Program-made: the position numbers and the translations under genes
Source of the DNA: a virus
Length of the DNA stretch: 34,041 bases
IMG/VR virus record: IMGVR_UViG_3300045391_001644
Location: 1-34,041 of that record
Reading direction: 5' to 3' (one strand)
Notes under the pieces: generated by a model
Seen by the model: the letters and a program-made list of their open reading frames with translations, nothing else
What the model was told of the DNA's origin: nothing
Database searches by the model: none
In this document: one piece after another, positions 8,728 to 34,041 of the stretch
Position numbering within the stretch: position 1 is the first letter of the stretch
How the letters are laid out: each line of letters starts with the position of its first letter

Positions 8728-10513
8728 CGCTAAAGAAACGATCGCTACAGCGGTGAAGTCCGCGCCGAAAGCCCGCCGCAGCAAAAAAGACAAGCCGGCG
8801 GTTTCGCATGAGGATGCTTCTGCGCCCTATGACATCACGTTCCCGCCCGATTGCCCGATCGAGCCGCTGGGCATCAACGGCGATGATGTTTATTTCCTCG
8901 ATCAAAAACGCCAGCTGGCAGTTTTGAAATCCGACAAGCTCAACATGGGGACCATCCGCGCCCTGTTCGGTAATCTGCAGGAGCTGAAATATGCCTACTG
9001 GCCTCGCTTCTCAAAGCCGGACGAAAACGGGAGGTGTAAAGTGAACGGATGGCGGCCTGAACAGGCTGCCGATTGTTTGTATGCCGAGGCCTCGCGCAAA
9101 GGATTGTGGGATGTGCTTGAGCGTGTGCGCGGTCCCGGCTGCTGGCGCGATGCCGACGGCAAGCTGGTGATGCATTGCGGCGATCTGCTTTTCCATGATG
9201 GCCAAGCGATGACGCCGCGGCAGATCGGCCGTCATGTTTATCCGTCCGCGCCCGCCGGCCCGCACCCGATGATGAAGACGGCAACCACGAAAGAGATCGA
9301 GCAGCTGCTGACGCTGCTCAAGACCTGGTCGTGGCGCCGGCCGGATGTCGATCCGTATCTCCTCCTGGGATGGATCGGCGCATCGATCATGGGCGGCGCG
9401 CTGAAATGGCGGCCGCTGGTGTGGGTGACTGGCGACAAGGCGATGGGGAAATCCACGCTGCATGATGTCATCAAGGGCGTTCTCGGCCCCGGAGGTATTG
9501 TAAATTCGACGGATGCCACGGCCGCAGGCCTGTGGCAGACCGTCGGCCATGCTTCTATTCCTGTCGCGCTCGATGAAATTGAAGCTGAGCAGGATAATCG
9601 CAAAGCGCAAAACATCATCAAGCTCGCGCGCCAGGCGGCATCCGGCGGCCAGACATTGCGCGGTGGTTCCGATCATAAAAACGCATCGTTTACAGTGCGT
9701 TCATGCTTCCTGTTTTCCAGCATCCTGATCCCGCCGATGCTCGGCCAGGACATCAGCCGTATGGCCGTTCTGGAACTCGACAAGCTCCCCGAAAAAGCGA
9801 AGCCTCCAAGTTTAGATGAAAAAATGCTGGAGCAAATCGGCGCCGCCATCCGCGCGCGGATCATGCAGCAATGGGATCGCTTCCCTGATTTACTCCTCAC
9901 TTGGCAAACGCAGCTCGTCCAGGCCGGTCACTCCGGCCGTTCGGCCGATCAATTCGGCACGCTCCTCGCGTGCTACGACCTCCTGACCTCCGATTATGAG
10001 CCAGACACCGAAGCGAAAGAAAAATGGTCATTGCGCCTGGCGAAGCAAGGGCTGGCTGAATGCGAACAGGATATCGCCGACCATGAGCGTTGCATCTCGT
10101 ACCTCATGACCACGCAGCTCGATCTCTATCGATCGGGCGAACGCCGCACGGTAGGCAGCTGGATCATCCAGGCGGCCGGCAAGGATAAGGTTAATTACCA
10201 TACAAAAGATATCGAAGACGCCAACAAGGCGCTCGGCAATGTCGGGCTTATGGTCAAAGAATTATCAACCCGAGGCGCTAGCGGCGGGTTTAAATACCAT
10301 GTCCTCTACGTCGCAAATGACCATCAGGGCCTCGCCGGCCTATTCGCCAATTCACACTGGTCCGGCAACTCAGGGACCAATGGCGTCTGGGTCCAGGCGA
10401 TGCGGCGCGTCAAGGGCGCCCAGGCCGATCAGCAACGCTTCAACGGTCTCAAGAAACGCTGCACGGCCATCCCATTAACCGAAGTGATCGGAGCTGACGA
10501 TGAGAAAGAATAA
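8720..10513 (+). CDS. P4/D5-type (SF3) helicase-like replication ATPase
   Basis: 597 aa. Walker A in VWVTGDKAMGKSTL and Walker B in IPVALDEIE. It follows the primase gene, as in split P4-alpha-type replicases. Confidence 0.75.
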   Translation: MSDAKETIATAVKSAPKARRSKKDKPAVSHEDASAPYDITFPPDCPIEPLGINGDDVYFLDQKRQLAVLKSDKLNMGTIRALFGNLQELKYAYWPRFSKPDENGRCKVNGWRPEQAADCLYAEASRKGLWDVLERVRGPGCWRDADGKLVMHCGDLLFHDGQAMTPRQIGRHVYPSAPAGPHPMMKTATTKEIEQLLTLLKTWSWRRPDVDPYLLLGWIGASIMGGALKWRPLVWVTGDKAMGKSTLHDVIKGVLGPGGIVNSTDATAAGLWQTVGHASIPVALDEIEAEQDNRKAQNIIKLARQAASGGQTLRGGSDHKNASFTVRSCFLFSSILIPPMLGQDISRMAVLELDKLPEKAKPPSLDEKMLEQIGAAIRARIMQQWDRFPDLLLTWQTQLVQAGHSGRSADQFGTLLACYDLLTSDYEPDTEAKEKWSLRLAKQGLAECEQDIADHERCISYLMTTQLDLYRSGERRTVGSWIIQAAGKDKVNYHTKDIEDANKALGNVGLMVKELSTRGASGGFKYHVLYVANDHQGLAGLFANSHWSGNSGTNGVWVQAMRRVKGAQADQQRFNGLKKRCTAIPLTEVIGADDEKE

Positions 10514-10657
10514 CGCTCTCCGCGCAGTTAATTTCGTTGCAAATTCTGCCCTGGCCCCGACCCGTCGCGCCCTGCGCACGACCCGTTTTCCCCGCGCCCA
10601 TTCCCTTAAACCCTATGGATTTCATTCATTCCGAAAAAGTCAATCCGCTTTCTCAAC

Positions 10658-10924
10658 TGTCCCGCTGTCCCGGTCATTGTCCCGGTCATTGTCCCGGTGG
10701 TTTGTTTGCACCTTCAGCGGGTTAGGGAGATTGTCCCGCTGTCCCGGTCAACCTCTCACACATGCACACATGCACCTGCGCACACGGGGATGCAGCGGGA
10801 CATGCGGGACAGCGGGACAATTACGCCCTCTTTCTTCTTTTTCTGTTTTAAATCAGATGGTTAGAAAGATGAATGACTGTCCCGGCGTCTGTCCCGGTCT
10901 GTCCCGCCGATCATCGATGATCGG
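10658..10924. repeat. Heptamer iteron array: 12 x TGTCCCG (6 forward, 3 inverted, 3 forward) plus an 18-bp perfect palindrome
   Basis: Forward copies start at 10658, 10666, 10678, 10690, 10732 and 10740. Inverted CGGGACA copies start at 10796, 10805 and 10813. Further forward copies start at 10878, 10890 and 10900. Other elements: a CACACATG tandem at 10757-10772, an AT-rich stretch at 10828-10860, and the palindrome CCGATCATCGATGATCGG at 10907-10924. Confidence 0.9.
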
Positions 10925-10956
10925 AAAAACCAATAAAATATGGGGGTTTTATTATC

Positions 10957-11586
10957 ATGACTGACCTGGGCGGCGAGAAAATCGGGATTAACACGGCTGT
11001 AGCTGAGGCTATTGCGCAGAATGGCGGCGTCCAGGTGCCTAATTTCGTGGATGCCGAGCAGCTTTCGTTGATACCTTTACGGAAAGTCGAGGATGGGGCC
11101 GAAGCGGTTTCTAGGGGTTCTCTCGCGCGGGGTGTGGGGAGGCCTCCCGGCTCGAAAAACAGACGGACGCAGGAGATGGCGGATTACATCCTGTCGCGCT
11201 ACACATCGCCGCTGATCGCGCTGGCTGAAACCTACGCGCGTCCGGTTCAAGATTTGGCGAAGGAACTCGGCTGCGACAAACTGGAAGCGTTCAAGCTCCA
11301 GCTCGTCGCCGCGAAAGAGCTTGCGCCGTACCTGCATCAGAAACTCCCGATCGCCATCGACACGGGCGAGAAGGGATTGATCCACCTGACGATCAACGCC
11401 GGGACCGCCGCAGCAGCGCAGCAGGTCATCGACGACAACAGATTGCAGGTCAAATTCCTTGACGTAATCGATCAAAACGACATTGAACAAAATCAAGGGC
11501 TTAGCGAATTATCCGCGCCAAACTCTAACGGCTCAAACTCTAACGGCTCAACAGAAACGCCGGAAAATAAAGGGAAAGATGAATAG
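10957..11586 (+). CDS. Probable terminase small subunit
   Basis: Sits immediately upstream of the large terminase. Basic DNA-binding-like segment: GRPPGSKNRRTQEMADYILSRYTSPLIALAE. The C-terminal NSNGSNSNGS comes from a 15-bp tandem duplication. Confidence 0.55.
   Translation: MTDLGGEKIGINTAVAEAIAQNGGVQVPNFVDAEQLSLIPLRKVEDGAEAVSRGSLARGVGRPPGSKNRRTQEMADYILSRYTSPLIALAETYARPVQDLAKELGCDKLEAFKLQLVAAKELAPYLHQKLPIAIDTGEKGLIHLTINAGTAAAAQQVIDDNRLQVKFLDVIDQNDIEQNQGLSELSAPNSNGSNSNGSTETPENKGKDE
11521..11550 (-). repeat. 15-bp tandem (AACTCTAACGGCTCA x2) containing two inverted copies of the att-arm motif CGTTAGAGTT
   Basis: AACTCTAACG at 11521-11530 and 11536-11545 is the exact reverse complement of the 10-mer at 107-116 and 130-139. 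It lies inside the 3' end of the terS-like gene. Confidence 0.7.
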
Positions 11587-13989: not shown

Positions 13990-15567
13990 ATGCCGCAGCT
14001 GCAACCCAGAGAATTAAAAAAACGTTCCGATGCAGCTTGGTTGCTGCGCGATCAATGGCGTACGATCCTCATCGATGCCTATGAAATGGCGATGGCCGGC
14101 CGCAATCCATATTCGGGAAACGACAAGGCCCCACGGCCGATGGATCGCCAATTCGACAGCACTGCTCCGATTTCGACGATCAAATTGGCGAACCGCATCC
14201 TGATGGATTTAACGCCGCCGGATCAGAACTGGATCGACGTCAAGCCCGGTCCCTTGCTGGAGCTTCAGTACAGCAAAGAAGATTTAGAGCAGCTGCGGCC
14301 AAAGCTCGATGGCGTTGCAAAAATCGGCAACATGGTCATCAACAGCGGCAATGCCGTGAATGTACGCTACGAAGCATTTATCGATATGCTGGTCGGCGGT
14401 ATGGGTGTCGCGCTTGCACTCGAAGATGCAACGGATGATCTGGAGCCGATCATCGAACAAGCTGTCAGCCAGGCCGAGGTCGCAATCGATGAAAACGCCA
14501 AAGGCCGCATCTCGGGTATTTTCCGCAGAAGAAAAATAAAGCTGAACAAGATCACGGAGATTTGGGATGATGCAAAAATCCCGGAGAATTTAACTAACCA
14601 AAAAGGAAAAGATAAAGACCCTGAAATCGAGGTGCTGGAGACAACCTACGAAGGCGGCGCAAAAAGCAATGTCGCTTGGTATTACGATGTCCTGATCTGT
14701 CAAAACGATGCCGAGCCTGTGCGTATCGTCGAGCGAACCTATGAGATTTGTCCCTGGACAATCTGGCGCTGGATGAAACTGCCGGGCATTCCGTACGGTC
14801 CCGGCCCTGTCATCCTCGCGCTCGCCGATATCCGCACCGCCAATAAAATCATGGAAATGATTTTGAAGAATGCGTCGCTGGCTCTCGCTGGTATGTATCT
14901 CGCCCGCGACGACGGTGTTTTAAATCCCGACAATGTCTTGATAACGCCGGGCGGGATCATCCCCGTTCAGGCAACGGGCGGATCGCTCGGGGCGTCGCTG
15001 GCGCCATTGGGCACCAACCGTGAATTCGATGTCGGGCAAATCATGCTCGATAAAATGCAGACAACGATTAAAAAGCATTTATTCGATAATTCTTTGCCGC
15101 CGGATCGCGCGACGCCGGCAAGCGCAACGGAAATAATTCAGCGCGTGAAAGAGTTGACCTCCGATATCGGTGGCGGCACCGGCCGTCTGCAGGCCGACAC
15201 GACGCAGTATGTTCGCCGGCGACTGGAAATCCTGGCTAAGCGCGGTCTTATACCGAATTTAAAAATCGACCAGTTTACGCTGAAGGTGCAAATCAACGCT
15301 CCTCTCGCGCGTGCTGCGCAGCATGCTGAAATCGAAACCGTTATCCAATGGTATCAACTCTGCATTTCCCTGGGCGGACCCCAGGCGGCAATGCTCGTCG
15401 GTAAAATTGAAGCAATTCTGATGTGGGCGGCCGAGAAGATGGGCGTTCCTAACGAACTGTTGCGGACGAAATCCGAACAGGCCGAGCTGCAGAAGAATGT
15501 CGCCACAATCGTGGCGGCGCAACAAAGCCAGCAAGCCACGGCGTCAATGCCGGCGCAGGCGGCTTAA
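13990..15567 (+). CDS. Portal (head-tail connector) protein, T7 gp8-like size and position
   Basis: 525 aa, lying between terminase and scaffold. The N-terminus RSDAAWLLRDQWRTILIDAYEMAMAGRNPY resembles podoviral connector proteins. Confidence 0.8.
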   Translation: MPQLQPRELKKRSDAAWLLRDQWRTILIDAYEMAMAGRNPYSGNDKAPRPMDRQFDSTAPISTIKLANRILMDLTPPDQNWIDVKPGPLLELQYSKEDLEQLRPKLDGVAKIGNMVINSGNAVNVRYEAFIDMLVGGMGVALALEDATDDLEPIIEQAVSQAEVAIDENAKGRISGIFRRRKIKLNKITEIWDDAKIPENLTNQKGKDKDPEIEVLETTYEGGAKSNVAWYYDVLICQNDAEPVRIVERTYEICPWTIWRWMKLPGIPYGPGPVILALADIRTANKIMEMILKNASLALAGMYLARDDGVLNPDNVLITPGGIIPVQATGGSLGASLAPLGTNREFDVGQIMLDKMQTTIKKHLFDNSLPPDRATPASATEIIQRVKELTSDIGGGTGRLQADTTQYVRRRLEILAKRGLIPNLKIDQFTLKVQINAPLARAAQHAEIETVIQWYQLCISLGGPQAAMLVGKIEAILMWAAEKMGVPNELLRTKSEQAELQKNVATIVAAQQSQQATASMPAQAA

Positions 15568-15591
15568 TACAACCAAACGAGGAGAAAAACT

Positions 15592-15990
15592 ATGAATACA
15601 GGTCAAAATACTGATGCCGGATTTTTGCCGGCACATCCTGCTATGGATGACATCATGAAGCGCATCGGTGGTCCTGGATGGGAGGCTTTAAACAAAACGC
15701 CCGCCGGCGCCGACATGGAAACGGCACGTGCAAAGGCGAAGCAAGATTTGCTGCGGAGTTATGCGCAGCTGGCCGCGCATCCGGGTGGCGCCAAGGTGCT
15801 GGAGGATATTCTCGATCAGACCCTGCGCCGTTCGCCATATAAACCCGGCAGCACTCTCACGCTCGAACAGCAAACGGCCTACGGCCTGGAGCGCATGGGG
15901 CAGAACGGCCTGGCAACCTACATCCTGAAAATGATCCATGACGGCCAAAACTTGCCGCCCGCGGGATCTAAAAAGCGCGGAAAAAAGTAA
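15592..15990 (+). CDS. Hypothetical head-module protein
   Basis: 132-aa ORF with a GAGGAG RBS. Confidence 0.6.
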   Translation: MNTGQNTDAGFLPAHPAMDDIMKRIGGPGWEALNKTPAGADMETARAKAKQDLLRSYAQLAAHPGGAKVLEDILDQTLRRSPYKPGSTLTLEQQTAYGLERMGQNGLATYILKMIHDGQNLPPAGSKKRGKK

Positions 15991-16018
15991 TCAATCTCAA
16001 CCCTAACTGGAGGCTAAA

Positions 16019-16894
16019 ATGAGTGACCAACCTAAAAAAACTGCTGGCGAAAAACCCGGCGATAAACCAGCTGGAGGCGATGGACTTGATCCGAACGCTC
16101 AAGGCAAAAAACCAGATGCCGCCGCCGACGGCGGAAATCCTGGCGGTGACGATCAGAAGCCAAGCATCTACAGGCCAAAAGATATGCCGGATCATTTCCT
16201 GGGTGCCAACGATCAGGAAACCATCGACCGTTTGAACAAAGCCTATATGGGCGCGCGTTCTGAATTGGCCGGCAAAAACGGCGTCCCTGAAAAGTTGGAT
16301 GATTATAAAATCGAACTGCCTGAAGAAATCGCTTCGGTTGCGTTAAAGCCGGGCGAAGACGGAAAGGATGCGATTTTCGAGGGCATGCGCGGCACATTTC
16401 ACCAGCTCGGGATTGCGCCTGAAAAAGCTCAAACGCTGGCGGTTGAGTTTTACAAGCACGTCGCGGCAGCAGTGGCGGCCGGGAAGCCTCCAGGTGACGG
16501 CGACGGCGGCGAAGAACCGTCGGCGGACTTTGAATACAAAGCCCTTGGCGGTGCCGATAAGGCCAAGCCTGTCGTCGATGCCACCAATACATTCCTCAAA
16601 GGTCTGCAGGGCAGCGGAAAAATCAGCGAAGCAACCATGAAAGAGTTGCAGCTGCTGACGTTCCATAGCGACGGCCTGCAAGCTTTGAATGAATTGCGGC
16701 CGCTGATGGGCGAAAAACCCATCCCGTTCAACCTGGAAGGCGGCAGCGGTGAAGGTAAAATCACTGAAGCCATGCTTAATGACCGTGTTGCCGACCCTCG
16801 TTATCGCCGCGGAGGAAAGCAATTCAGCCAGGAATTCTACGATAAAACCACGGAAATGTTTGCTGAGCTTTATGGAACTAACGGGGCTGGTTGA
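16019..16894 (+). CDS. Scaffolding protein (by position and composition)
   Basis: 291 aa, acidic and Gly/Pro/Asp/Lys-rich, lying directly between the portal and the major capsid gene. Confidence 0.65.
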   Translation: MSDQPKKTAGEKPGDKPAGGDGLDPNAQGKKPDAAADGGNPGGDDQKPSIYRPKDMPDHFLGANDQETIDRLNKAYMGARSELAGKNGVPEKLDDYKIELPEEIASVALKPGEDGKDAIFEGMRGTFHQLGIAPEKAQTLAVEFYKHVAAAVAAGKPPGDGDGGEEPSADFEYKALGGADKAKPVVDATNTFLKGLQGSGKISEATMKELQLLTFHSDGLQALNELRPLMGEKPIPFNLEGGSGEGKITEAMLNDRVADPRYRRGGKQFSQEFYDKTTEMFAELYGTNGAG

Positions 16895-17181
16895 CACAAA
16901 GAATTTGCCGTGTTCGCATTGATGGTGGGGGAACATTTGCTTAAAGGCAATCGCCGTTCCCCCACCATTCCGCCCTCCAGCCATTAAAGCTGGACCGGAC
17001 AGTTTGAAAGGGTCTGAAAACCTTTCCGCTACCAGGGCGGCGTCACGTCCAGGGACAGACCCGCGCTATGCCGCACTCGGGTCTTCCGCCTTAAACGGTG
17101 GGAAGATGCAGACCGGCTCCAAGCAAGGCACTCGGCCCGACATAAGCAGTCAAAACCGAAACCCTAACATGGAGCTTCATC
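16895..17181 (+). promoter_or_regulatory. 287-nt structured non-coding leader upstream of the major capsid gene (candidate cis-regulatory RNA or processing site)
   Basis: 13-bp perfect stem 16922-16934/16956-16968 with an inner 4-bp stem. Further hairpins at 17006-17011/17021-17026 and 17058-17063/17078-17083. GGGTCTG (17010-17016) is complementary to both CAGACCC (17056-17062) and CAGACC (17109-17114). No credible ORF. Confidence 0.45.
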
Positions 17182-18015
17182 ATGAGCACTTCCATCGATA
17201 ATGCGTTTATCAAGCAGTATGAACGCGAAGTACACGTCGCCTATCAACGTCAAGGTTCCAAGCTACGGAACACCGTCCGCACGAAAAACAATATCGTCGG
17301 CGAGTCCACAACCTTCCAGAAAGTTGGCAAGGGAACCGCAGCTCAGAAAACACGAAACGGCCAAGTGCCGCAAATGAACGTCAACCACACTCCGGTTGAA
17401 TGCCTCCTCGCCGATTACTACGCCGGCGAGATGGTCGATAAGCTCGACGAGCTGAAAACAAACATCGATGAAAAAGAAGTTCTGTCCAACGCCGGCGCCT
17501 ACGCGCTCGGCCGCAAGACCGATGAACTCATCATCAATGCCTTGGCTACCACGACAAAATTCGTCGGAAACTATTCGACCGGCCTCACGCTTCCTTTGCT
17601 GTCGCAAGCAATCGAAATGCTGAACGATGCCGATGTGCCTGACGACGGTCAACGTTTCGGGGTTCTTTCCAGTCATGCATGGGAAGAATTCAAAAACATT
17701 GTCGAAGTCGGCAGCGGAGATTACACGGGCGATCTATACCCGTGGCTGCAGGGCCAGCAGGCTTTCAAATGGAACGGCGTCATGTTCATGCCGCATTCCG
17801 GCCTTCCCCTCGCCAGCACCGATGACCGCGACTGCTACATCTACCACAAAACTGCAGTCGGTCACGCATCCGGTTCGGACGTGAAAACGGACATCACCTG
17901 GCAAGGTATGTATGCGGCGCATTTCATCAACAACATGATGAGCCAAGGTGCTTGCCTGATCGACACGATCGGGGCGGTCGAAATCCGCGTAGATGACGAC
18001 ACTGCTCTGACCTAA
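17182..18015 (+). CDS. Major capsid protein
   Basis: 277 aa with a GGAG RBS. It follows the scaffold gene and is followed by a strong intrinsic terminator, as for T7 gene 10. Confidence 0.75.
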   Translation: MSTSIDNAFIKQYEREVHVAYQRQGSKLRNTVRTKNNIVGESTTFQKVGKGTAAQKTRNGQVPQMNVNHTPVECLLADYYAGEMVDKLDELKTNIDEKEVLSNAGAYALGRKTDELIINALATTTKFVGNYSTGLTLPLLSQAIEMLNDADVPDDGQRFGVLSSHAWEEFKNIVEVGSGDYTGDLYPWLQGQQAFKWNGVMFMPHSGLPLASTDDRDCYIYHKTAVGHASGSDVKTDITWQGMYAAHFINNMMSQGACLIDTIGAVEIRVDDDTALT

Positions 18016-18024
18016 CCGATTTCG

Positions 18025-18056
18025 GAGCGCCCCTGACCGGGCGCTTCATTCTTTTT
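18025..18056 (+). terminator. Intrinsic terminator after the capsid gene
   Basis: AGCGCCC (18026-18032) pairs with GGGCGCT (18039-18045) around a 6-nt loop, followed by TCATTCTTTTT. Confidence 0.7.
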
Positions 18057-18104
18057 GAATTCTGATCAAATTTTTTTATTCAACTCCAACAAGGAAGGTT
18101 ACAA

Positions 18105-18572
18105 ATGTCTTACGATAAAAACGCCCTTCGCCTGTTCCACAACGCCGCAGCTGCGGCCGATGGACTGACGGTGAAGCGCTTCTACACCTACGTCACCAAC
18201 GACCTGCAATCCGCTGTCGAAGCCAACGCCTATTTCGACGGCGCTCTCGACAACGGCCTGAATGCCGGCGACGTGATTTTTGCGATCATGGATGATGACG
18301 GAACGCCGCTGTTCAAAGCGTACTTCATTACGGCCGGCGGCGCCGACGTTGCTATCCGTGGCACGGGTCCCGCCATTTCCGCGCTGACCTTTAACCTGGT
18401 CTCCGGCACGGCAAACAACGCGCTCGAAGCCCTGGCTAACCCCACAGACAGCCCGGCGACGGCCGATGCGTTGCGCGATGACCTTGTCGCCAACCTGCTG
18501 CCGGCGCTGCGCAATAACTTCGCCGATCTTGCCTCCAAGGTCGAGGAGCTTCGCGCAGCTGTTGCTGTTTAA
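18105..18572 (+). CDS. Hypothetical virion protein (possible head decoration or fibre)
   Basis: 155-aa ORF with an AAGGAAGG RBS, lying between the capsid and adaptor genes. Confidence 0.6.
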   Translation: MSYDKNALRLFHNAAAAADGLTVKRFYTYVTNDLQSAVEANAYFDGALDNGLNAGDVIFAIMDDDGTPLFKAYFITAGGADVAIRGTGPAISALTFNLVSGTANNALEALANPTDSPATADALRDDLVANLLPALRNNFADLASKVEELRAAVAV

Positions 18573-18579
18573 TCCGGTT

Positions 18580-18636
18580 CCTACGGCGGGTTCTGTTGGC
18601 GTTCCGCGCGCTCAGCCCGCCGTAGGTCTTTCAATT
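18580..18636 (+). terminator. Long hairpin, possible terminator or attenuator
   Basis: 11-bp perfect stem: CCTACGGCGGG (18580-18590) with CCCGCCGTAGG (18616-18626), 25-nt loop, followed by TCTTTCAATTTC. Confidence 0.4.
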
Positions 18637-18659
18637 TCTGCGTCACCTGGGGAGGCTCG

Positions 18660-19286
18660 ATGTCGGTTAATGATTACGATGAAGTAAAAATCTGCACCGC
18701 CGCCTTGACCCTGATCGGCGAGGACCCGATCGATACGATTACCGATCCCGAAACCGATGTCGAGGCCACCTGCGCCACCCTACTCCCGCTTGTCATCGCC
18801 ACGCTGCTTTCCAAGCATGAATGGAATTTCGCCAACCCAATCCGGGAGCTTGCGGTCAATGCCGACGAGCCTGGGAAATTCGGCTACACATACGCCCATC
18901 GTCTGCCGTCCGACCTCATCGCGGGGCCTTTCGCTGTTTACGGGAATAACAACACACGTCGTCCGACGCAGAATTACGAGAACGCCAACGATCACATTTA
19001 CAGCGATTTTGAAATCATCCATGCCCGCTATCGGATAAAGCCGGCCATCACGATCATGCCGATTTATTTCATTGATCTGATCGTGACCGTTCTCGGAATG
19101 CGATTGGCAAAGCCGGTCGCTGACAATACCGACCTAGCGACAGAACTGCGCATCCTTGCATTCGGTCCAGCCGAGCTGGATGGGAAGGGCGGTATGTTCG
19201 CCGATGCTAAAAACATCGATGCGAAATCACAGCCTATCCGCAGCATGTTTGCAAACGGCGACCCACTTTCGGCAACGAGGTATTGA
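18660..19286 (+). CDS. Tail adaptor / tail tubular protein A (T7 gp11-like)
   Basis: 208 aa. The N-terminus ICTAALTLIGEDPIDTITDPETDVEATCATLLPLVIATLLSKHEWNFA follows the gp11-family pattern (..aL..lGe.pI.s......a..c...y......lL..h.WnFA). Confidence 0.7.
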   Translation: MSVNDYDEVKICTAALTLIGEDPIDTITDPETDVEATCATLLPLVIATLLSKHEWNFANPIRELAVNADEPGKFGYTYAHRLPSDLIAGPFAVYGNNNTRRPTQNYENANDHIYSDFEIIHARYRIKPAITIMPIYFIDLIVTVLGMRLAKPVADNTDLATELRILAFGPAELDGKGGMFADAKNIDAKSQPIRSMFANGDPLSATRY

Positions 19287-28331: not shown

Positions 28332-30754
28332 CACAAACAACCAATGATCGCCGCGCCCGGTACGAAGTCACAAATCCCGCCGGCCAATCCATCTTCGATA
28401 TCGATTTTGAACTCGACAACGTGGATTACATCCGCGTGTACGCCGATAACGACCTGATCGATGCTGCCGATTATACCGTTGACCTGGAGACCTTAAAGGC
28501 AACGCTGGACACGCCTGCGGTACAGGGAACGATCATCACGCTCGAAGGCTACAGCCTGATCGAGCGCACAACCGATTACCCGCTTCGCGGCGCCCTTCGC
28601 GCGCGGCTTCTCAATGCCGATTTCGACAAATTCACGCGTACGCTGCAGGAGCTGCGCCGCGATGTTGATCTGTGCCTGAGAATTAACCGGGCAGAAGATG
28701 TCAATGTCAGCACCGTCATGCCGCTGCTCGATCCTGGTCATGTCATCGTATGCGGCGAGGAAGGTTTTGAAATCGGTCCAGATACGACCGACGTGGCTAC
28801 GGTTGCGGCCAGCATCGCCAATGTCGATGCCGTCGCTGCCGCGTTAACAAACATCAATATCGTTGCAACCGATTTGAACAGCTTCGACACGATCGGAGAT
28901 GTCGCCGCTAATATCGACGCCGTTGCGGCCGTCGGCAATAACATCGTGCATGTCCTGTCGGTTGATGACAACGAGGCAAACATAACGGCCGTAGCCGGCA
29001 ACGCGACCAACATCAACCTGGTCGCCGGCAACGCGACCAACATCAATACCGTGGCCAGCATCAACGGGGTTATCAACACTGTCGCGGGTATCTCAGCCAA
29101 CGTCACGACGGTCGCAGGCATTTCCTCTGCGGTCTCGAATGTCTCGGGCATCGCCGCGGCCGTATCGGCAGTTTCCGGGATTTCCTCGGCTGTTTCAAAT
29201 GTCTCTTCGATCTCCGCGAATGTCAGCACCGTGGCGGGTATTTCCGGCAACGTCACGACAGTGGCGGGCATGTCGGCGAACATCACCACCGTCGCGGGGA
29301 TGTCGGGTAATATATCTACAGTTGTCGCCAATATAACGGCCATTCAAAACGCATCGACAAATGCCACAAATGCGGCGACTTCCGCATCGAACGCTTTGAC
29401 GAGCGAAAACAATGCCGCGGCAAGCGCGATTGCGGCCGCAGCTTCAGCTGCGCAATTCTCCGGCACATCGACAACATCGGTGGCGATCGCAACCGGCACG
29501 AAGGCCTTCACCACTCAAAGCGGAAAACTTTTCAACGGTGAAAACGTCCGCGTTTATTCTGCGGCCGATCCGACAAATTTCATGGACGGGTTGGCGACGT
29601 ATTCCGGCACAAGCCTCAGCGTCGATGTTTCGACGATCGGCGGATCGGGAACAAAAACGGATTGGGTCATCAAGGTTAATGGCGCGAAAGGCGTACAGGG
29701 GCCAAGCGGGTCCCTTGACTTCACCGCGCTCAGTGCTGAAACCGCACTCGCAAGCGGCGATCTCTTTGTCATCAACGACATCAGCGAGGGCGCAAACAAC
29801 AAGATGACGACACTGGATGTCTTTAAGGGCTTTACGGTGTTGCCAACCACAGCGCTTGCGGTCGGCGATGAAATGCCCTTCTATGATATTTCTGGTACTG
29901 TCGCCGGCAAAGTCACGGTTCAAAACTTCTGGAACATGGTGACTGGCCTGACATCAGAAACGGCCCTAGCCGTCGGCGATGAGTTCCCGGTCTATGATGT
30001 ATCTGCATCCAATACCGACAAAGTCACACTGCAGAGCTTCTATAACGCCATCAATATCCTGACCGCTGAAACCGCGGCGCCGGCGACGAACGATGTGCTT
30101 CTGATGTACGACACATCGGCAACTAATGCGGATAAAATCACCGTCGCTGATTTCTTCAAAGCCTTTACCAGCTTCTCAACAGTAACGATGGCAAGCGGCG
30201 ATGAAATCCCGTTCTACGATATTTCCGGCGCGGTGGCCGGCAAGGCAACTGTCGCCGCACTCTGGACGGCGATGACATCATTAAGCCTCTCGGGTGTATT
30301 GCCTTCAGCGCAAGGCGGCGCGGGAACAGTCAACGGCATCATGAAGGCGAACGGCTCGGGTACAACTTCCGCCGCCGCCGCTGGCACAGATTATGTTTCT
30401 CCAACTGGCACGGAAACGCTGACCAACAAGCGTATCAATCCGCGCATCCAGGCTGTAACATCGAGCGCTACCGTCACAGCCAACGCCGACACCGATGATG
30501 CTGTTGTCATCACCGCCCAGGCGGCGGGCCTGACGCTGGCGAACCCCACCGGAACCCCCGTTCAGGGCCAAGGCCTCATCATCAGGATTAAAGATAACGG
30601 CACAGCCCGGTCGATTTCTTTCGGCACGAATTTCCGTGCGATGGGGACCGTGTTGCCAACCACGACCGTCATTTCAAAAACGCTTTATCTCTCCTGCGTC
30701 TATAACTCCACCGACACAAAATGGGACGTCACCGGCGTCGCCAAGGAAGCTTAA
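28328..30754 (+). CDS. Tail fibre protein with a T7 gp17-like N-terminal tail-attachment domain
   Basis: 808 aa. The N-terminus (FDIDFELDNVDYIRVY..LRARLLNADFDKFTRTLQELRRD) matches the podoviral fibre N-domain pattern. It is followed by decapeptide repeats, five repeats of about 36 aa, and a C-terminal globular part. Confidence 0.8.
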   Translation: MTQTTNDRRARYEVTNPAGQSIFDIDFELDNVDYIRVYADNDLIDAADYTVDLETLKATLDTPAVQGTIITLEGYSLIERTTDYPLRGALRARLLNADFDKFTRTLQELRRDVDLCLRINRAEDVNVSTVMPLLDPGHVIVCGEEGFEIGPDTTDVATVAASIANVDAVAAALTNINIVATDLNSFDTIGDVAANIDAVAAVGNNIVHVLSVDDNEANITAVAGNATNINLVAGNATNINTVASINGVINTVAGISANVTTVAGISSAVSNVSGIAAAVSAVSGISSAVSNVSSISANVSTVAGISGNVTTVAGMSANITTVAGMSGNISTVVANITAIQNASTNATNAATSASNALTSENNAAASAIAAAASAAQFSGTSTTSVAIATGTKAFTTQSGKLFNGENVRVYSAADPTNFMDGLATYSGTSLSVDVSTIGGSGTKTDWVIKVNGAKGVQGPSGSLDFTALSAETALASGDLFVINDISEGANNKMTTLDVFKGFTVLPTTALAVGDEMPFYDISGTVAGKVTVQNFWNMVTGLTSETALAVGDEFPVYDVSASNTDKVTLQSFYNAINILTAETAAPATNDVLLMYDTSATNADKITVADFFKAFTSFSTVTMASGDEIPFYDISGAVAGKATVAALWTAMTSLSLSGVLPSAQGGAGTVNGIMKANGSGTTSAAAAGTDYVSPTGTETLTNKRINPRIQAVTSSATVTANADTDDAVVITAQAAGLTLANPTGTPVQGQGLIIRIKDNGTARSISFGTNFRAMGTVLPTTTVISKTLYLSCVYNSTDTKWDVTGVAKEA
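28988..29347 (+). repeat. In-frame 30-bp tandem repeats (12 decapeptide units, xVAGISxNVT-like) within the tail fibre gene
   Basis: aa 221-340 read in strict 10-aa register: AVAGNATNIN/LVAGNATNIN/TVASINGVIN/TVAGISANVT/TVAGISSAVS/NVSGIAAAVS/AVSGISSAVS/NVSSISANVS/TVAGISGNVT/TVAGMSANIT/TVAGMSGNIS/TVVANITAIQ. A looser periodicity starts at aa 161 (28808). Confidence 0.85.
29732..30283 (+). repeat. Five repeats of about 36 aa (..ALAVGDExPFYDxSxxxxxKVTxxxFxxxxxxL) in the tail fibre gene
   Basis: aa 469-652. The units begin SAETALASGDLF, PTTALAVGDEMPFYD, TSETALAVGDEFPVYD, TAETAAPATNDVLLMYD and STVTMASGDEIPFYD. Confidence 0.75.
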
Positions 30755-31872
30755 TGTCCTTTCACCGTTTTCCATCGATCCTTATTCCGAACAACGCCCC
30801 GATGATGGTCAGCGGCCTAGCGCTGACCACGCCCGGCGCAATCACACAGCAGGTTCCTGCCGGCTGGACATCGCTCGATGTCGAAGCCTGGGGAGCTGGC
30901 GGCGCCGGCGGCGGCAATAGCAGCACAGGATCATTCGGCGCCGGCGGCGGCGGCGGCGGTTATTCCAAAAAAACTTATGCCGTAACACCTGGCCAAATAT
31001 TCTCAGGCAATATTGGAGCTGGCAGCGCCGGCACCTCCGGCACCGGCACGGCCGGCGGCAATACCACCGTGGATGTTCTGACAGCCAACGGCGGCGGCGG
31101 TGGCGTTACGAATGGTGGCAGCGGCGGCGCTGGCGGCACTGCAAGCGGCGGTGACGTCAACACAACTGGCACGGCCGGCACAAACGGCGGCGCTGGCGGA
31201 TCGTTGAATGGAGCAGCAGGCGGGGCATCGCCGAATGGCGGAGCTGGCGGCGCTGGCGGAACTGGCAATGTCGGTGGAGCTGGCGGCCTTGGCGGCACCG
31301 GCGGTACGCCTGGGGGCGGCGGCGGCGGCGGCGGCGGCCGCGGTCTCGGCAGTAACACGTCCGGCGGCACCGGCGCGCCAGGTCAAATCAAATTCACAAA
31401 GACACCGACACTCATCAATCTCACCGGCTATACGACGATTTCAGATTTCGATGTCAGTACCGCGCCGGCGTTCGATGGCACGACAAACCAGGCGCAAGTC
31501 TCATGCGCATTGAAGAACAACGTCGCTGCAGGAACAAGTAATGGCTATATCGGCAAAACGCTCGGTACGCCCTCAGCAATTCACAGCGCTGTCTCGCACG
31601 GCACCAACGATAAAGGTTATGCATTCACGGGTTCGCCAAGCGGATCGACAATGACCTTGAGCCTGTACGGCAAACAAGGCACCGCGCCGGCCTCGCCGAC
31701 AAACGGCACGCTGCTCGGCCAGATCAGCTTCACCAACCAGGCAAACGAAAGCGTCGGCCGCACGATCGCCAGCTCCGACACGACAACGGTTTGGGATCAC
31801 GTTTGGGTTTACCTGACACAACCTGACAATGCCAATAACGGCTTTGCAGAGATTTTATTTTACGCACCGTAA
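30754..31872 (+). CDS. Glycine-rich domain protein (tail-fibre-associated)
   Basis: Start at MSFHRFPSIL via a TAATG overlap with the fibre stop. VPAGWTSLDVEAWGAGGAGGG..GGGGGGYS and long GGxGG tracts are followed by a non-repetitive beta-rich C-terminal domain. Confidence 0.7.
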   Translation: MSFHRFPSILIPNNAPMMVSGLALTTPGAITQQVPAGWTSLDVEAWGAGGAGGGNSSTGSFGAGGGGGGYSKKTYAVTPGQIFSGNIGAGSAGTSGTGTAGGNTTVDVLTANGGGGGVTNGGSGGAGGTASGGDVNTTGTAGTNGGAGGSLNGAAGGASPNGGAGGAGGTGNVGGAGGLGGTGGTPGGGGGGGGGRGLGSNTSGGTGAPGQIKFTKTPTLINLTGYTTISDFDVSTAPAFDGTTNQAQVSCALKNNVAAGTSNGYIGKTLGTPSAIHSAVSHGTNDKGYAFTGSPSGSTMTLSLYGKQGTAPASPTNGTLLGQISFTNQANESVGRTIASSDTTTVWDHVWVYLTQPDNANNGFAEILFYAP

Positions 31873-33972: not shown

Positions 33973-34012
33973 ATTTACAGTCTGCTGCCATTAACCACTC
34001 GGCCACCCTTCC
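33973..34012 (-). pseudogene. Truncated tRNA-Tyr 5' fragment inside the right att copy
   Basis: Same 40 nt as 1-40. After the anticodon loop the minus strand continues CATTCTCGCTAT, which cannot pair with the GCAGA anticodon stem, so no 3' half is present. Confidence 0.7.
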
Positions 34013-34041
34013 ATTCCACGGCAAGCCTTTATAATGATTGA
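33973..34041. repeat. att direct repeat, right copy
   Basis: Identical to 1-69. The preceding bases (..gcgagaatg) are phage-specific and unrelated to tRNA sequence. Confidence 0.9.

Follow-up and report, generated by a model that had tools for sequence, protein, structure and literature searches.

The window, by which we mean the whole 34,041-nucleotide stretch of viral DNA analysed here (IMG/VR record IMGVR_UViG_3300045391_001644), carries a perfect 69-nt direct repeat at its two ends (1-69 and 33973-34041). The repeat includes the 5' half of a tRNA-Tyr-like gene (positions 40 to 1, minus strand), a match that reaches the anticodon loop CUGUAAA (GUA, Tyr) before the end of the window cuts it off; ARAGORN returned no whole tRNA and no tmRNA from the window. 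Because the end repeats look like the attL and attR sites of a prophage integrated in a tRNA gene, the window is taken to be a complete element of ~34 kb. Near its left end, a segment of ~470 nt is bracketed by two copies of a ~43-nt palindromic sequence (1183-1231 and 1693-1735; TCGATCGCCGGC...GCCGGCGATC), which are 86% identical, are also inverted relative to each other, and resemble the operators of an immunity or regulatory region. Three copies of the short direct repeat CTGTCCCGGTC, two of them adjacent (10665-10699 and 10877-10899), are iteron-like and lie inside or beside ORF 10500-10964, and dense GGC/GGN repeats (30879-31354) occur within ORF 30721-31872, which probably encodes a glycine-rich, fibre-like tail protein.

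The late genes follow the order portal, Bbp19-like, scaffold, major capsid, 155-aa protein, tail tube A and tail tube B, as in podoviruses of the T7/BPP-1 type. The features around the capsid gene are:

13990-15567: portal gene (PF12236)
16019-16894, plus strand: scaffold gene, T7 capsid-assembly-like (ORF; weak PF05396 match)
16895-17181, plus strand: whole non-coding spacer, read as a structured leader (z -4.76; no Rfam match; no conserved ORF; homologous spacers)
17182-18015, plus strand: major capsid gene, served by the leader (PF19821, E 2.9e-74; phrog_3437)
18024-18047, plus strand: intrinsic-terminator-like hairpin and T-run, 9 nt past the capsid stop (terminator scan)

PF05396 also matches the homologous gene in the related contigs L086, L089 and L091-L095. 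The scaffold ORF ends at 16894, its stop forming the 5' edge of the spacer, and the capsid ATG lies at 17182, leaving a gap of 287 nt among genes whose other gaps on the same strand nearby measure 24, 28, 89 and 87 nt or which overlap. These coordinates bear out the first-pass annotation, which had drawn attention to a long gap amid tightly packed genes. A check of the window for mobile elements and repeats showed the spacer to be present once only and revealed no terminal inverted repeats.

The 287-base spacer is a real, non-coding and strongly folded piece of mRNA. Its sole ORF (17004-17201, TTG start, 65 aa) has no Pfam or PHROG match, and indels between the spacer and its homologues (described below) are not multiples of three. 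Six-frame comparison of the window with those homologues gave only short matches that switch frame and strand, with no reading frame conserved, and for this reason we conclude that no conserved protein is encoded; a conserved small protein gene, which would have spoken against an RNA element, was thus found in the spacer by none of Pfam, PHROG or six-frame comparison. The plus strand has a minimum free energy of -112.6 kcal/mol, compared with -88.5 +/- 5.1 in a set of 200 dinucleotide shuffles (z -4.76), none of which (0/200) folded as well; the minus strand gave z -3.5. Both the non-coding status and the high degree of structure proposed in the first-pass annotation are upheld by these results, and all of the complementary segments that it listed are present in the sequence where it placed them, although not all of them pair as envisaged. 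The folded features of the spacer, all on the plus strand, are:

16922-16968, plus strand: H1 hairpin, 13-bp perfect lower stem, 2x5 internal loop and 5-bp apical stem (p 0.98/0.88)
16977-16993, plus strand: H2 hairpin CCAGC/GCTGG (16977-81/16989-93; p 1.00), absent from the first-pass annotation
16994-17004, plus strand: conserved linker ACCGGACAGTT (ACCAGACAGTT in L090, CCGGAACGTTT in L088; alignment A4)
17006-17026, plus strand: H3 hairpin GAAAGG/CCTTTC, 6-bp stem and 9-nt loop (RNAalifold)
17047-17063, plus strand: conserved box GTCCAGGGACAGACCCG (alignment A4; GACCCG invariant in all five copies)
17058-17083, plus strand: H5 hairpin GACCCG/CGGGTC (17058-63/17078-83; p 0.77-0.87)
17083-17105, plus strand: H6 hairpin CTTCCGCC/GGTGGGAAG with one bulge (17083-90/17097-105; p 0.20-0.53)
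17106-17121, plus strand: conserved ATGCAGACCGGCTCCA, in which GGCTCCA (17115-17121) is the anti-Shine-Dalgarno strand, pairing with 17170-76
17132-17159, plus strand: 3' hairpin TCGG-CCC-GAC / GTC-AAAA-CCGA (p 0.97-0.99; RNAalifold)
17170-17176, plus strand: TGGAGCT, Shine-Dalgarno (SD) strand of the occluding helix (GGAG at 17171-74), 7 nt before the capsid ATG

Nothing in this series corresponds to a catalogued RNA. Rfam 15 covariance models at gathering thresholds gave 0 matches in the whole window and 0 in 20 relatives, in agreement with the earlier remark that no named family was recognised; at E up to 10 the region 16700-17400 gave only two chance snoRNA matches, and the spacers of L090 and of the more distant L037 only sub-threshold noise. 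Judged against Rfam 15, the leader is a putative new RNA family, of a familiar kind.

A protein search yielded relatives with capsids 65-71% identical to that of the window, twelve of which were looked up. A long spacer is present in three distinct contigs (L086/L087, 337 nt; L088, 268 nt; L090, 274 nt), whose capsids are 68-71% identical to the window's. Logan/SRA assemblies were the origin of three of the four homologue contigs. The L090 and L088 spacers were recovered by nhmmer (E 8e-42 and 2e-32, respectively) and are homologous to the 3' two-thirds of the window spacer (alignment A4), while L086 has core boxes in common with the window and contains the unit twice. Folding z-scores of these spacers are -1.8 (L090), -2.4 (L088) and -3.7 (L086). 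The two tandem units of L086 (2164-2500, the same in L087) each consist of a closing helix, ATGGACCCGATCC ... GGTGACGCCCTCGG and the return strand of the closing helix, the helices being GGAGGCGGAAG/CTTCCGCCTTC and CCAGAG/CTCTGG.

Roughly ten relatives at 65-69% capsid identity (L089, L091-L097, L122 and L123) have only 10-20 nt at the same junction. The leader is therefore best described as an optional, accessory cassette that is dispensable for basic function, and the distribution (window, L086/L087, L088 and L090 versus ten short-junction relatives) suggests that it is gained or lost as a block. No further leaders of the window type were found by DNA match to the spacer in IMG/VR, GTDB genomes and JGI metagenomes, where the capsids are mostly at most 63% identical (one locus, L082, reaches 68% in its best-matching segment). 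IMG/VR was also scanned three times by DNA pattern, which returned nothing or chance matches within coding regions, and a distant search of phage GenBank with 16000-18100 returned a single weak match, internal to the capsid gene.

Comparison of the four leaders indicates that hairpins are retained while their sequences are replaced. This is clearest for H3 (17006-11/17021-26; p 0.44-0.80), which is GAAAGG/CCTTTC in the window, CCGGTG/CATCGG in L090 and GATAGC/GCTATC in L088, with L086 aligned as a gap; the loop is 9 nt in the window, L090 and L088, five of the six pairs have changed on both sides, one pair is a G-U, and RNAalifold predicts the hairpin without guidance. The GAAAGG/CCTTTC hairpin of the first-pass annotation is accordingly kept by wholesale compensatory change. 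At the H6 position CTTCCGCC/GGTGGGAAG of the window is matched by TTTTGC/GCAAAA in L090, CGAAGT/ACTTCG in L088 and GGGAGC/GCTCCC in L086, so that the hairpin earlier described as TTCC..GGAA is present and shows compensatory change in homologues, but in a somewhat different exact form (17083-90/17097-105) and with p of only 0.20-0.53 in the window. Likewise CCAGC/GCTGG at H2 is replaced by CTATTG/CAATAG in L090; for both H2 and H6, unrelated hairpins substitute at the same positions in the homologues compared. H5, proposed earlier as GACCCG/CGGGTC and well predicted in the window (p 0.77-0.87), is kept in L090 (with a G-U) and offers no covariation because GGA/TCC replaces it in L088 and L086. 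The G-U pairs of H3, H5 and H6 are compatible with the plus strand only.

Beside these changing stems stand invariant strings, namely GACCCG (all five copies), ATGCAGACCGG (window and L090) and AGTCAAAACCGAAA (17148-17161; identical in the window, L090 and L088). The 3' hairpin includes most of the last of these and, being invariant, shows no covariation of its own. With only four distinct homologues, covariation statistics are thin.

The helix that links this conserved 3' domain to the capsid start was absent from the first-pass annotation. GGCTCCA (17115-21) and TGGAGCT (17170-76) pair with p 0.62-0.87, and in all four leaders the first two G of the SD are paired with nucleotides -62 to -69 (p 0.58-1.0), enclosing the 3' hairpin. 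The position of the SD partner is constant and the helix sequences differ (GGCTCCA:TGGAGCT in the window, and GCTCAAGG:CCTTGGAGC, CCACGG:CCGTGG and GGTGAC..CCCT:AGGG..GTCGCC in the others), with registers partly shifted among homologues, so that the differences are not clean column-by-column covariation. By contrast, 19 leaders from elsewhere in the wider family show preferred SD partners at scattered positions between -244 and +29. As a caution, overall SD accessibility, examined in 19 leaders, did not differ from, and was not lower than, that in shuffled-upstream controls. General SD sequestration as a thermodynamic signal is rejected on these controls; what remains is the constant partner position in the four leaders. 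We infer that the SD helix may limit capsid translation. In a Ferrovibrio-like subgroup of the distant relatives (L010-L017, L041, L044-L047 and L057) the last 25 nt before the capsid start contain a conserved GACG/CGTC hairpin (GACGAAAAGGAGCGTC) with the SD in its loop, so that the SD is displayed, the opposite of the window-type leaders.

Three long-range pairings had been proposed previously for the spacer, and these fared less well. The closing helix TGGAC/GTCCA is complementary, but has p 0.00 and is not conserved, and GGGTCTG/CAGACCC likewise has p 0.00, is reduced to 4 bp in L090 and is missing in L088. GGTCTG/CAGACC (17011-16/17109-14) reaches p 0.11-0.51, varying with the flanks folded, and is represented by 4-5 bp in L090 and absent in L088. 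Of the suggested mutually exclusive folds, the competition of GGTCTG/CAGACC with H3 (17006-26) exists in the thermodynamic ensemble only and lacks comparative support, which is found instead for the SD-occluding helix. Another candidate closing helix, GGG 17052-54 with CCC 17136-38, was rejected (p 0.00 in the window, where the invariant 3' hairpin has this CCC in its internal loop). Its equivalents in L086, GAG:CTC and AAG:CTT, lie inside 6- and 12-bp closing helices, and a tertiary or pseudoknot contact between GGG and CCC is possible in the window.

The first-pass annotation was reminded by its alternative folds of a riboswitch, an attenuator or an RNase III-type processing element. One candidate is a ligand- or protein-sensing switch, either riboswitch-like or an autoregulatory operator recognised by a phage protein such as scaffold or capsid, in which the conserved domain 17047-17121 would decide whether the anti-SD and SD strands pair. 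The invariant unpaired or junction sequences GACCCG, ATGCAGACCGG and AGTCAAAACCGAAA beside covarying stems fit such a device, as do the conserved SD-occluding helix, a candidate expression platform, and the location of the H3-competing GGTCTG/CAGACC pairing (p 0.11-0.51) directly 5' of the anti-SD. Nevertheless, no Rfam aptamer matches even at E 10, the competing pairing shrinks to 4-5 bp in L090 and is lost in L088, a binding pocket cannot be defined from four sequences, and it is hard to see which ligand would make sense for a capsid gene. A sensing switch, as a rival or a complement of the leader, is considered improbable.

The first hairpin, H1, differs in character from the rest. Its 13-bp stem (16922-34/16956-68; p 0.98-0.99), reported in the first-pass annotation as a perfect stem and fully corroborated here, is the only perfect hairpin of at least 12 bp (loop of at most 40 nt) in the 34-kb window, where 0.1 would be expected from shuffles, and the 58-nt segment containing H1 folds at about -30 kcal/mol. 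The apical stem is also present (p 0.88), but has 5 bp (16937-41/16946-50) rather than the 4 bp described before. With 13 + 5 bp H1 has the G+C-rich hairpin of an intrinsic terminator, but its 3' tail, TCCGCCCTCC, is not a U-run and the terminator scan does not list it; the 18024-18047 site shows that canonical terminators of this element do carry U-tracts. Hairpins occur at the H1 position in every homologue, with sequences unrelated to each other: in L090 it is a canonical terminator (13 pairs and a T-run), in the window, L088 and L086 the U-tract is missing, and in several distant relatives a first hairpin is followed by a T-rich tail. The best reading is that H1 is terminator-derived. Since the U-tract is missing in the window, H1, just past the scaffold stop, more likely marks or protects an RNA end, as a 3' stabiliser or processing site, than terminates efficiently, and we infer that it may act on RNA ends.

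It could be argued that the spacer carries transcription signals at the DNA level, with H1 terminating the portal-scaffold unit, a late promoter reserved for the capsid gene lying behind it in the manner of phi10, and the remaining structure a by-product of a long 5' UTR. The canonical L090 terminator at the H1 position, the T-rich tails in several distant relatives and TTGACA-N17-TAnnnT-like sites seen by eye in the spacers of L033, L035 and L052 point in this direction, and a terminator follows the capsid gene as T-phi follows T7 gene 10. For the leader reading, an efficient terminator in L090 would be a difficulty, as it would require a promoter or antitermination downstream, and none was found. 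Sigma-70-like promoter scans of the plus strand of the window, L090, L088 and L086 spacers and of both strands of 15500-18800 returned no promoter-like site, a consensus that is weak evidence for Alphaproteobacteria, and promoter candidates picked by eye were rejected as not conserved in register. Window H1 lacks a U-tract, and the compensatory changes in H3 and H6 together with the fixed SD partner indicate selection on RNA pairing and not on DNA signals alone. Although unlikely as a full account, a terminator plus promoter carries some weight and is compatible with a regulatory leader, not exclusive of one.

Alternatively, H1 and/or the long-range helices might be cleaved by RNase III (or RNase E). 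The scaffold and capsid messages would thereby be split, and protective hairpins left behind would make the half-lives of the two differ. With its irregular ~18-bp duplex and asymmetric internal loop, H1 has the general shape of T7 RNase III sites; it is also the most stable and the only perfect long hairpin of the element, and all homologues have hairpins at its position. The L090 equivalent is plainly a terminator, however, and because H1 sequences are unrelated among homologues no conserved cleavage motif is visible. A processing element, whether rival or complement, is given little credence.

A stand-alone phage sRNA was also suggested in the first-pass annotation; it would be a non-coding 'moron' expressed on its own, perhaps from the prophage. 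The gain and loss of the cassette among close relatives would suit such an RNA, and the minus strand too folds well (z -3.5). Set against this, there is no promoter-like site on either strand and no plus-strand terminator in the spacer, conservation is strongest at the 3' end, where it merges with the SD, and the G-U pairs favour the plus strand. No plus-strand terminator lies at the 3' end of the window, L086, L088 or L090 spacers; the only terminator-like site in the window spacer is weak and on the minus strand (17179-17157, 3 G-C pairs). Having neither promoter nor 3' terminator within the four spacers, the RNA is judged to be continuous with the capsid message, and an independent sRNA is very unlikely.

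The reading towards which we lean, on balance of the above, is that the capsid mRNA has a structured leader acting in cis, in which a terminator-derived hairpin comes first and a 3' domain occludes the ribosome-binding site. The spacer would form a non-coding part of the plus-strand late mRNA in two parts, the very stable H1 (16922-68) directly after the scaffold stop and a capsid 5' leader of ~190 nt with multiple hairpins, from 16977 to 17181. Within the 3' domain the anti-SD (17115-21) is predicted to pair with the SD (17170-76) around the invariant hairpin 17132-59, so that capsid translation would depend on the opening or bypass of this helix; processing, a protein or co-transcriptional folding could open it. 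Acting together, the two parts would uncouple expression of the capsid gene from that of the scaffold gene and determine the ratio between the two, and the spacer most likely tunes the amount of capsid protein made.

Long spacers at the same junction are also common further afield. We collected 85 loci from IMG/VR, GTDB genomes and JGI metagenomes, mostly prophages of Rhodospirillales and other Alphaproteobacteria with capsids mostly 43-63% identical. The gap between scaffold and capsid genes is 220-440 nt in ~30 of the ~50 loci with a recognisable upstream gene and ~45 nt in eight, and these spacers have no DNA-level resemblance to that of the window. Many of them contain instead a compact motif, M1, with the form P1 - G RNAA C - variable P2 hairpin - G C C - P1', located 100-160 nt before the capsid ATG; examples among L001-L081 are L037:2843-2887, L034:2854-2894 and L035:2871-2901. 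In a 20-sequence seed 87% of cells pair and 33 change on both sides, the innermost three P1 pairs being partly so by construction as the seed was picked by a pairing descriptor. The covariation score was reached by 0/500 shuffles, and slid controls collapse. A covariance model (R1) built for the motif was run over 502 kb of related loci and located 36 sites, every one of them on the plus strand and at the expected distance, with only 3 matches elsewhere; 16 of the 36 lie outside the seed, and counts from a 34-row model alignment agree. R1 scores 20-43 bits at the expected place in relatives, and the Ferrovibrio-like subgroup has additional covarying stems. Strongly covarying and absent from Rfam, M1 is itself a candidate for a new RNA family; it is much better sampled than the window leader and could be submitted as such.

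The window leader occupies the same genomic slot as M1, on the same strand and at the same distance from the ATG, and GGGAYAGACCCG...CGGCCCGAC of the window loosely resembles CCGGAYAACCG...CGGCCCGGC of M1. The two differ in that R1 with filters off returned nothing in 16895-17181 among 56 matches at E up to 10 and no match in the L086, L088 and L090 spacers; reciprocally, nhmmer profiles of the window-type leader found no M1-type leader. Because R1 does not detect the window spacer, M1 is treated here as context and not as a description of the window leader. An M1-like fold of the window, with GGGTCTG 17010-16 and CAGACCC 17056-62 around AAAA-CC...GG, was rejected: R1 does not find it, it has p 0.00 and is not conserved, and L090 and L088 keep the competing H3 by compensatory change.

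On a more speculative note, the window leader and M1 might be two branches of one unrecognised superfamily of regulatory RNAs. Its members would respond to a factor from phage or host, such as the state of scaffold or procapsid or a processing enzyme, by opening the SD-occluding helix, and would in this way gate the making of major capsid protein in temperate T7/BPP-1-like podoviruses of Alphaproteobacteria. We regard this as rather doubtful; if true, it would represent a new class of assembly-coupled translational switch. The findings entail no change of paradigm, structured leaders and SD occlusion being already familiar mechanisms. A phage particle requires several hundred capsid subunits and fewer copies of scaffold, and to our knowledge little has been established on how temperate podoviruses that rely on the RNA polymerase of the host arrive at this ratio. 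The optional leader, present in four elements and missing from about ten, offers a natural comparison for the effect of a long structured leader on capsid expression.

A close parallel is T7, which shares the gene order portal, scaffold, major capsid and tail tube A/B. T7 gene 10 has the phi10 promoter, a structured 5' UTR with a translational enhancer and the T-phi terminator after the gene, and the window similarly places a dedicated, putatively regulatory spacer directly before the gene for the most abundant structural protein and a terminator directly after it, the 18024-18047 site mirroring T-phi. The T7 leader is ~60 nt long, needs a phage RNA polymerase promoter and enhances translation, whereas the window spacer is 287 nt long, without promoter consensus or sequence similarity to it, and the prediction for its SD is occlusion, not exposure. 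In this last respect it resembles the phage operators and leaders that sequester the SD, such as the MS2/Q-beta replicase operator, the T4 gene 32 leader and the alternative structures of lambda cIII, which have in common a helix over the ribosome-binding site and conserved structure upstream (here predicted); unlike those cases the window element is much larger and multi-domain. Candidate structured RNAs (csRNAs) have also been predicted at scale from IMG/VR, five of them, uncharacterised, upstream of PHA00201-type major capsid genes (PMC10690425). While the Rfam GP20-a and GP20-b models do not match the window leader, and the csRNAs are likened to it by category alone, all of these are, like the leader described here, computational, covarying structures directly upstream of phage morphogenesis genes.
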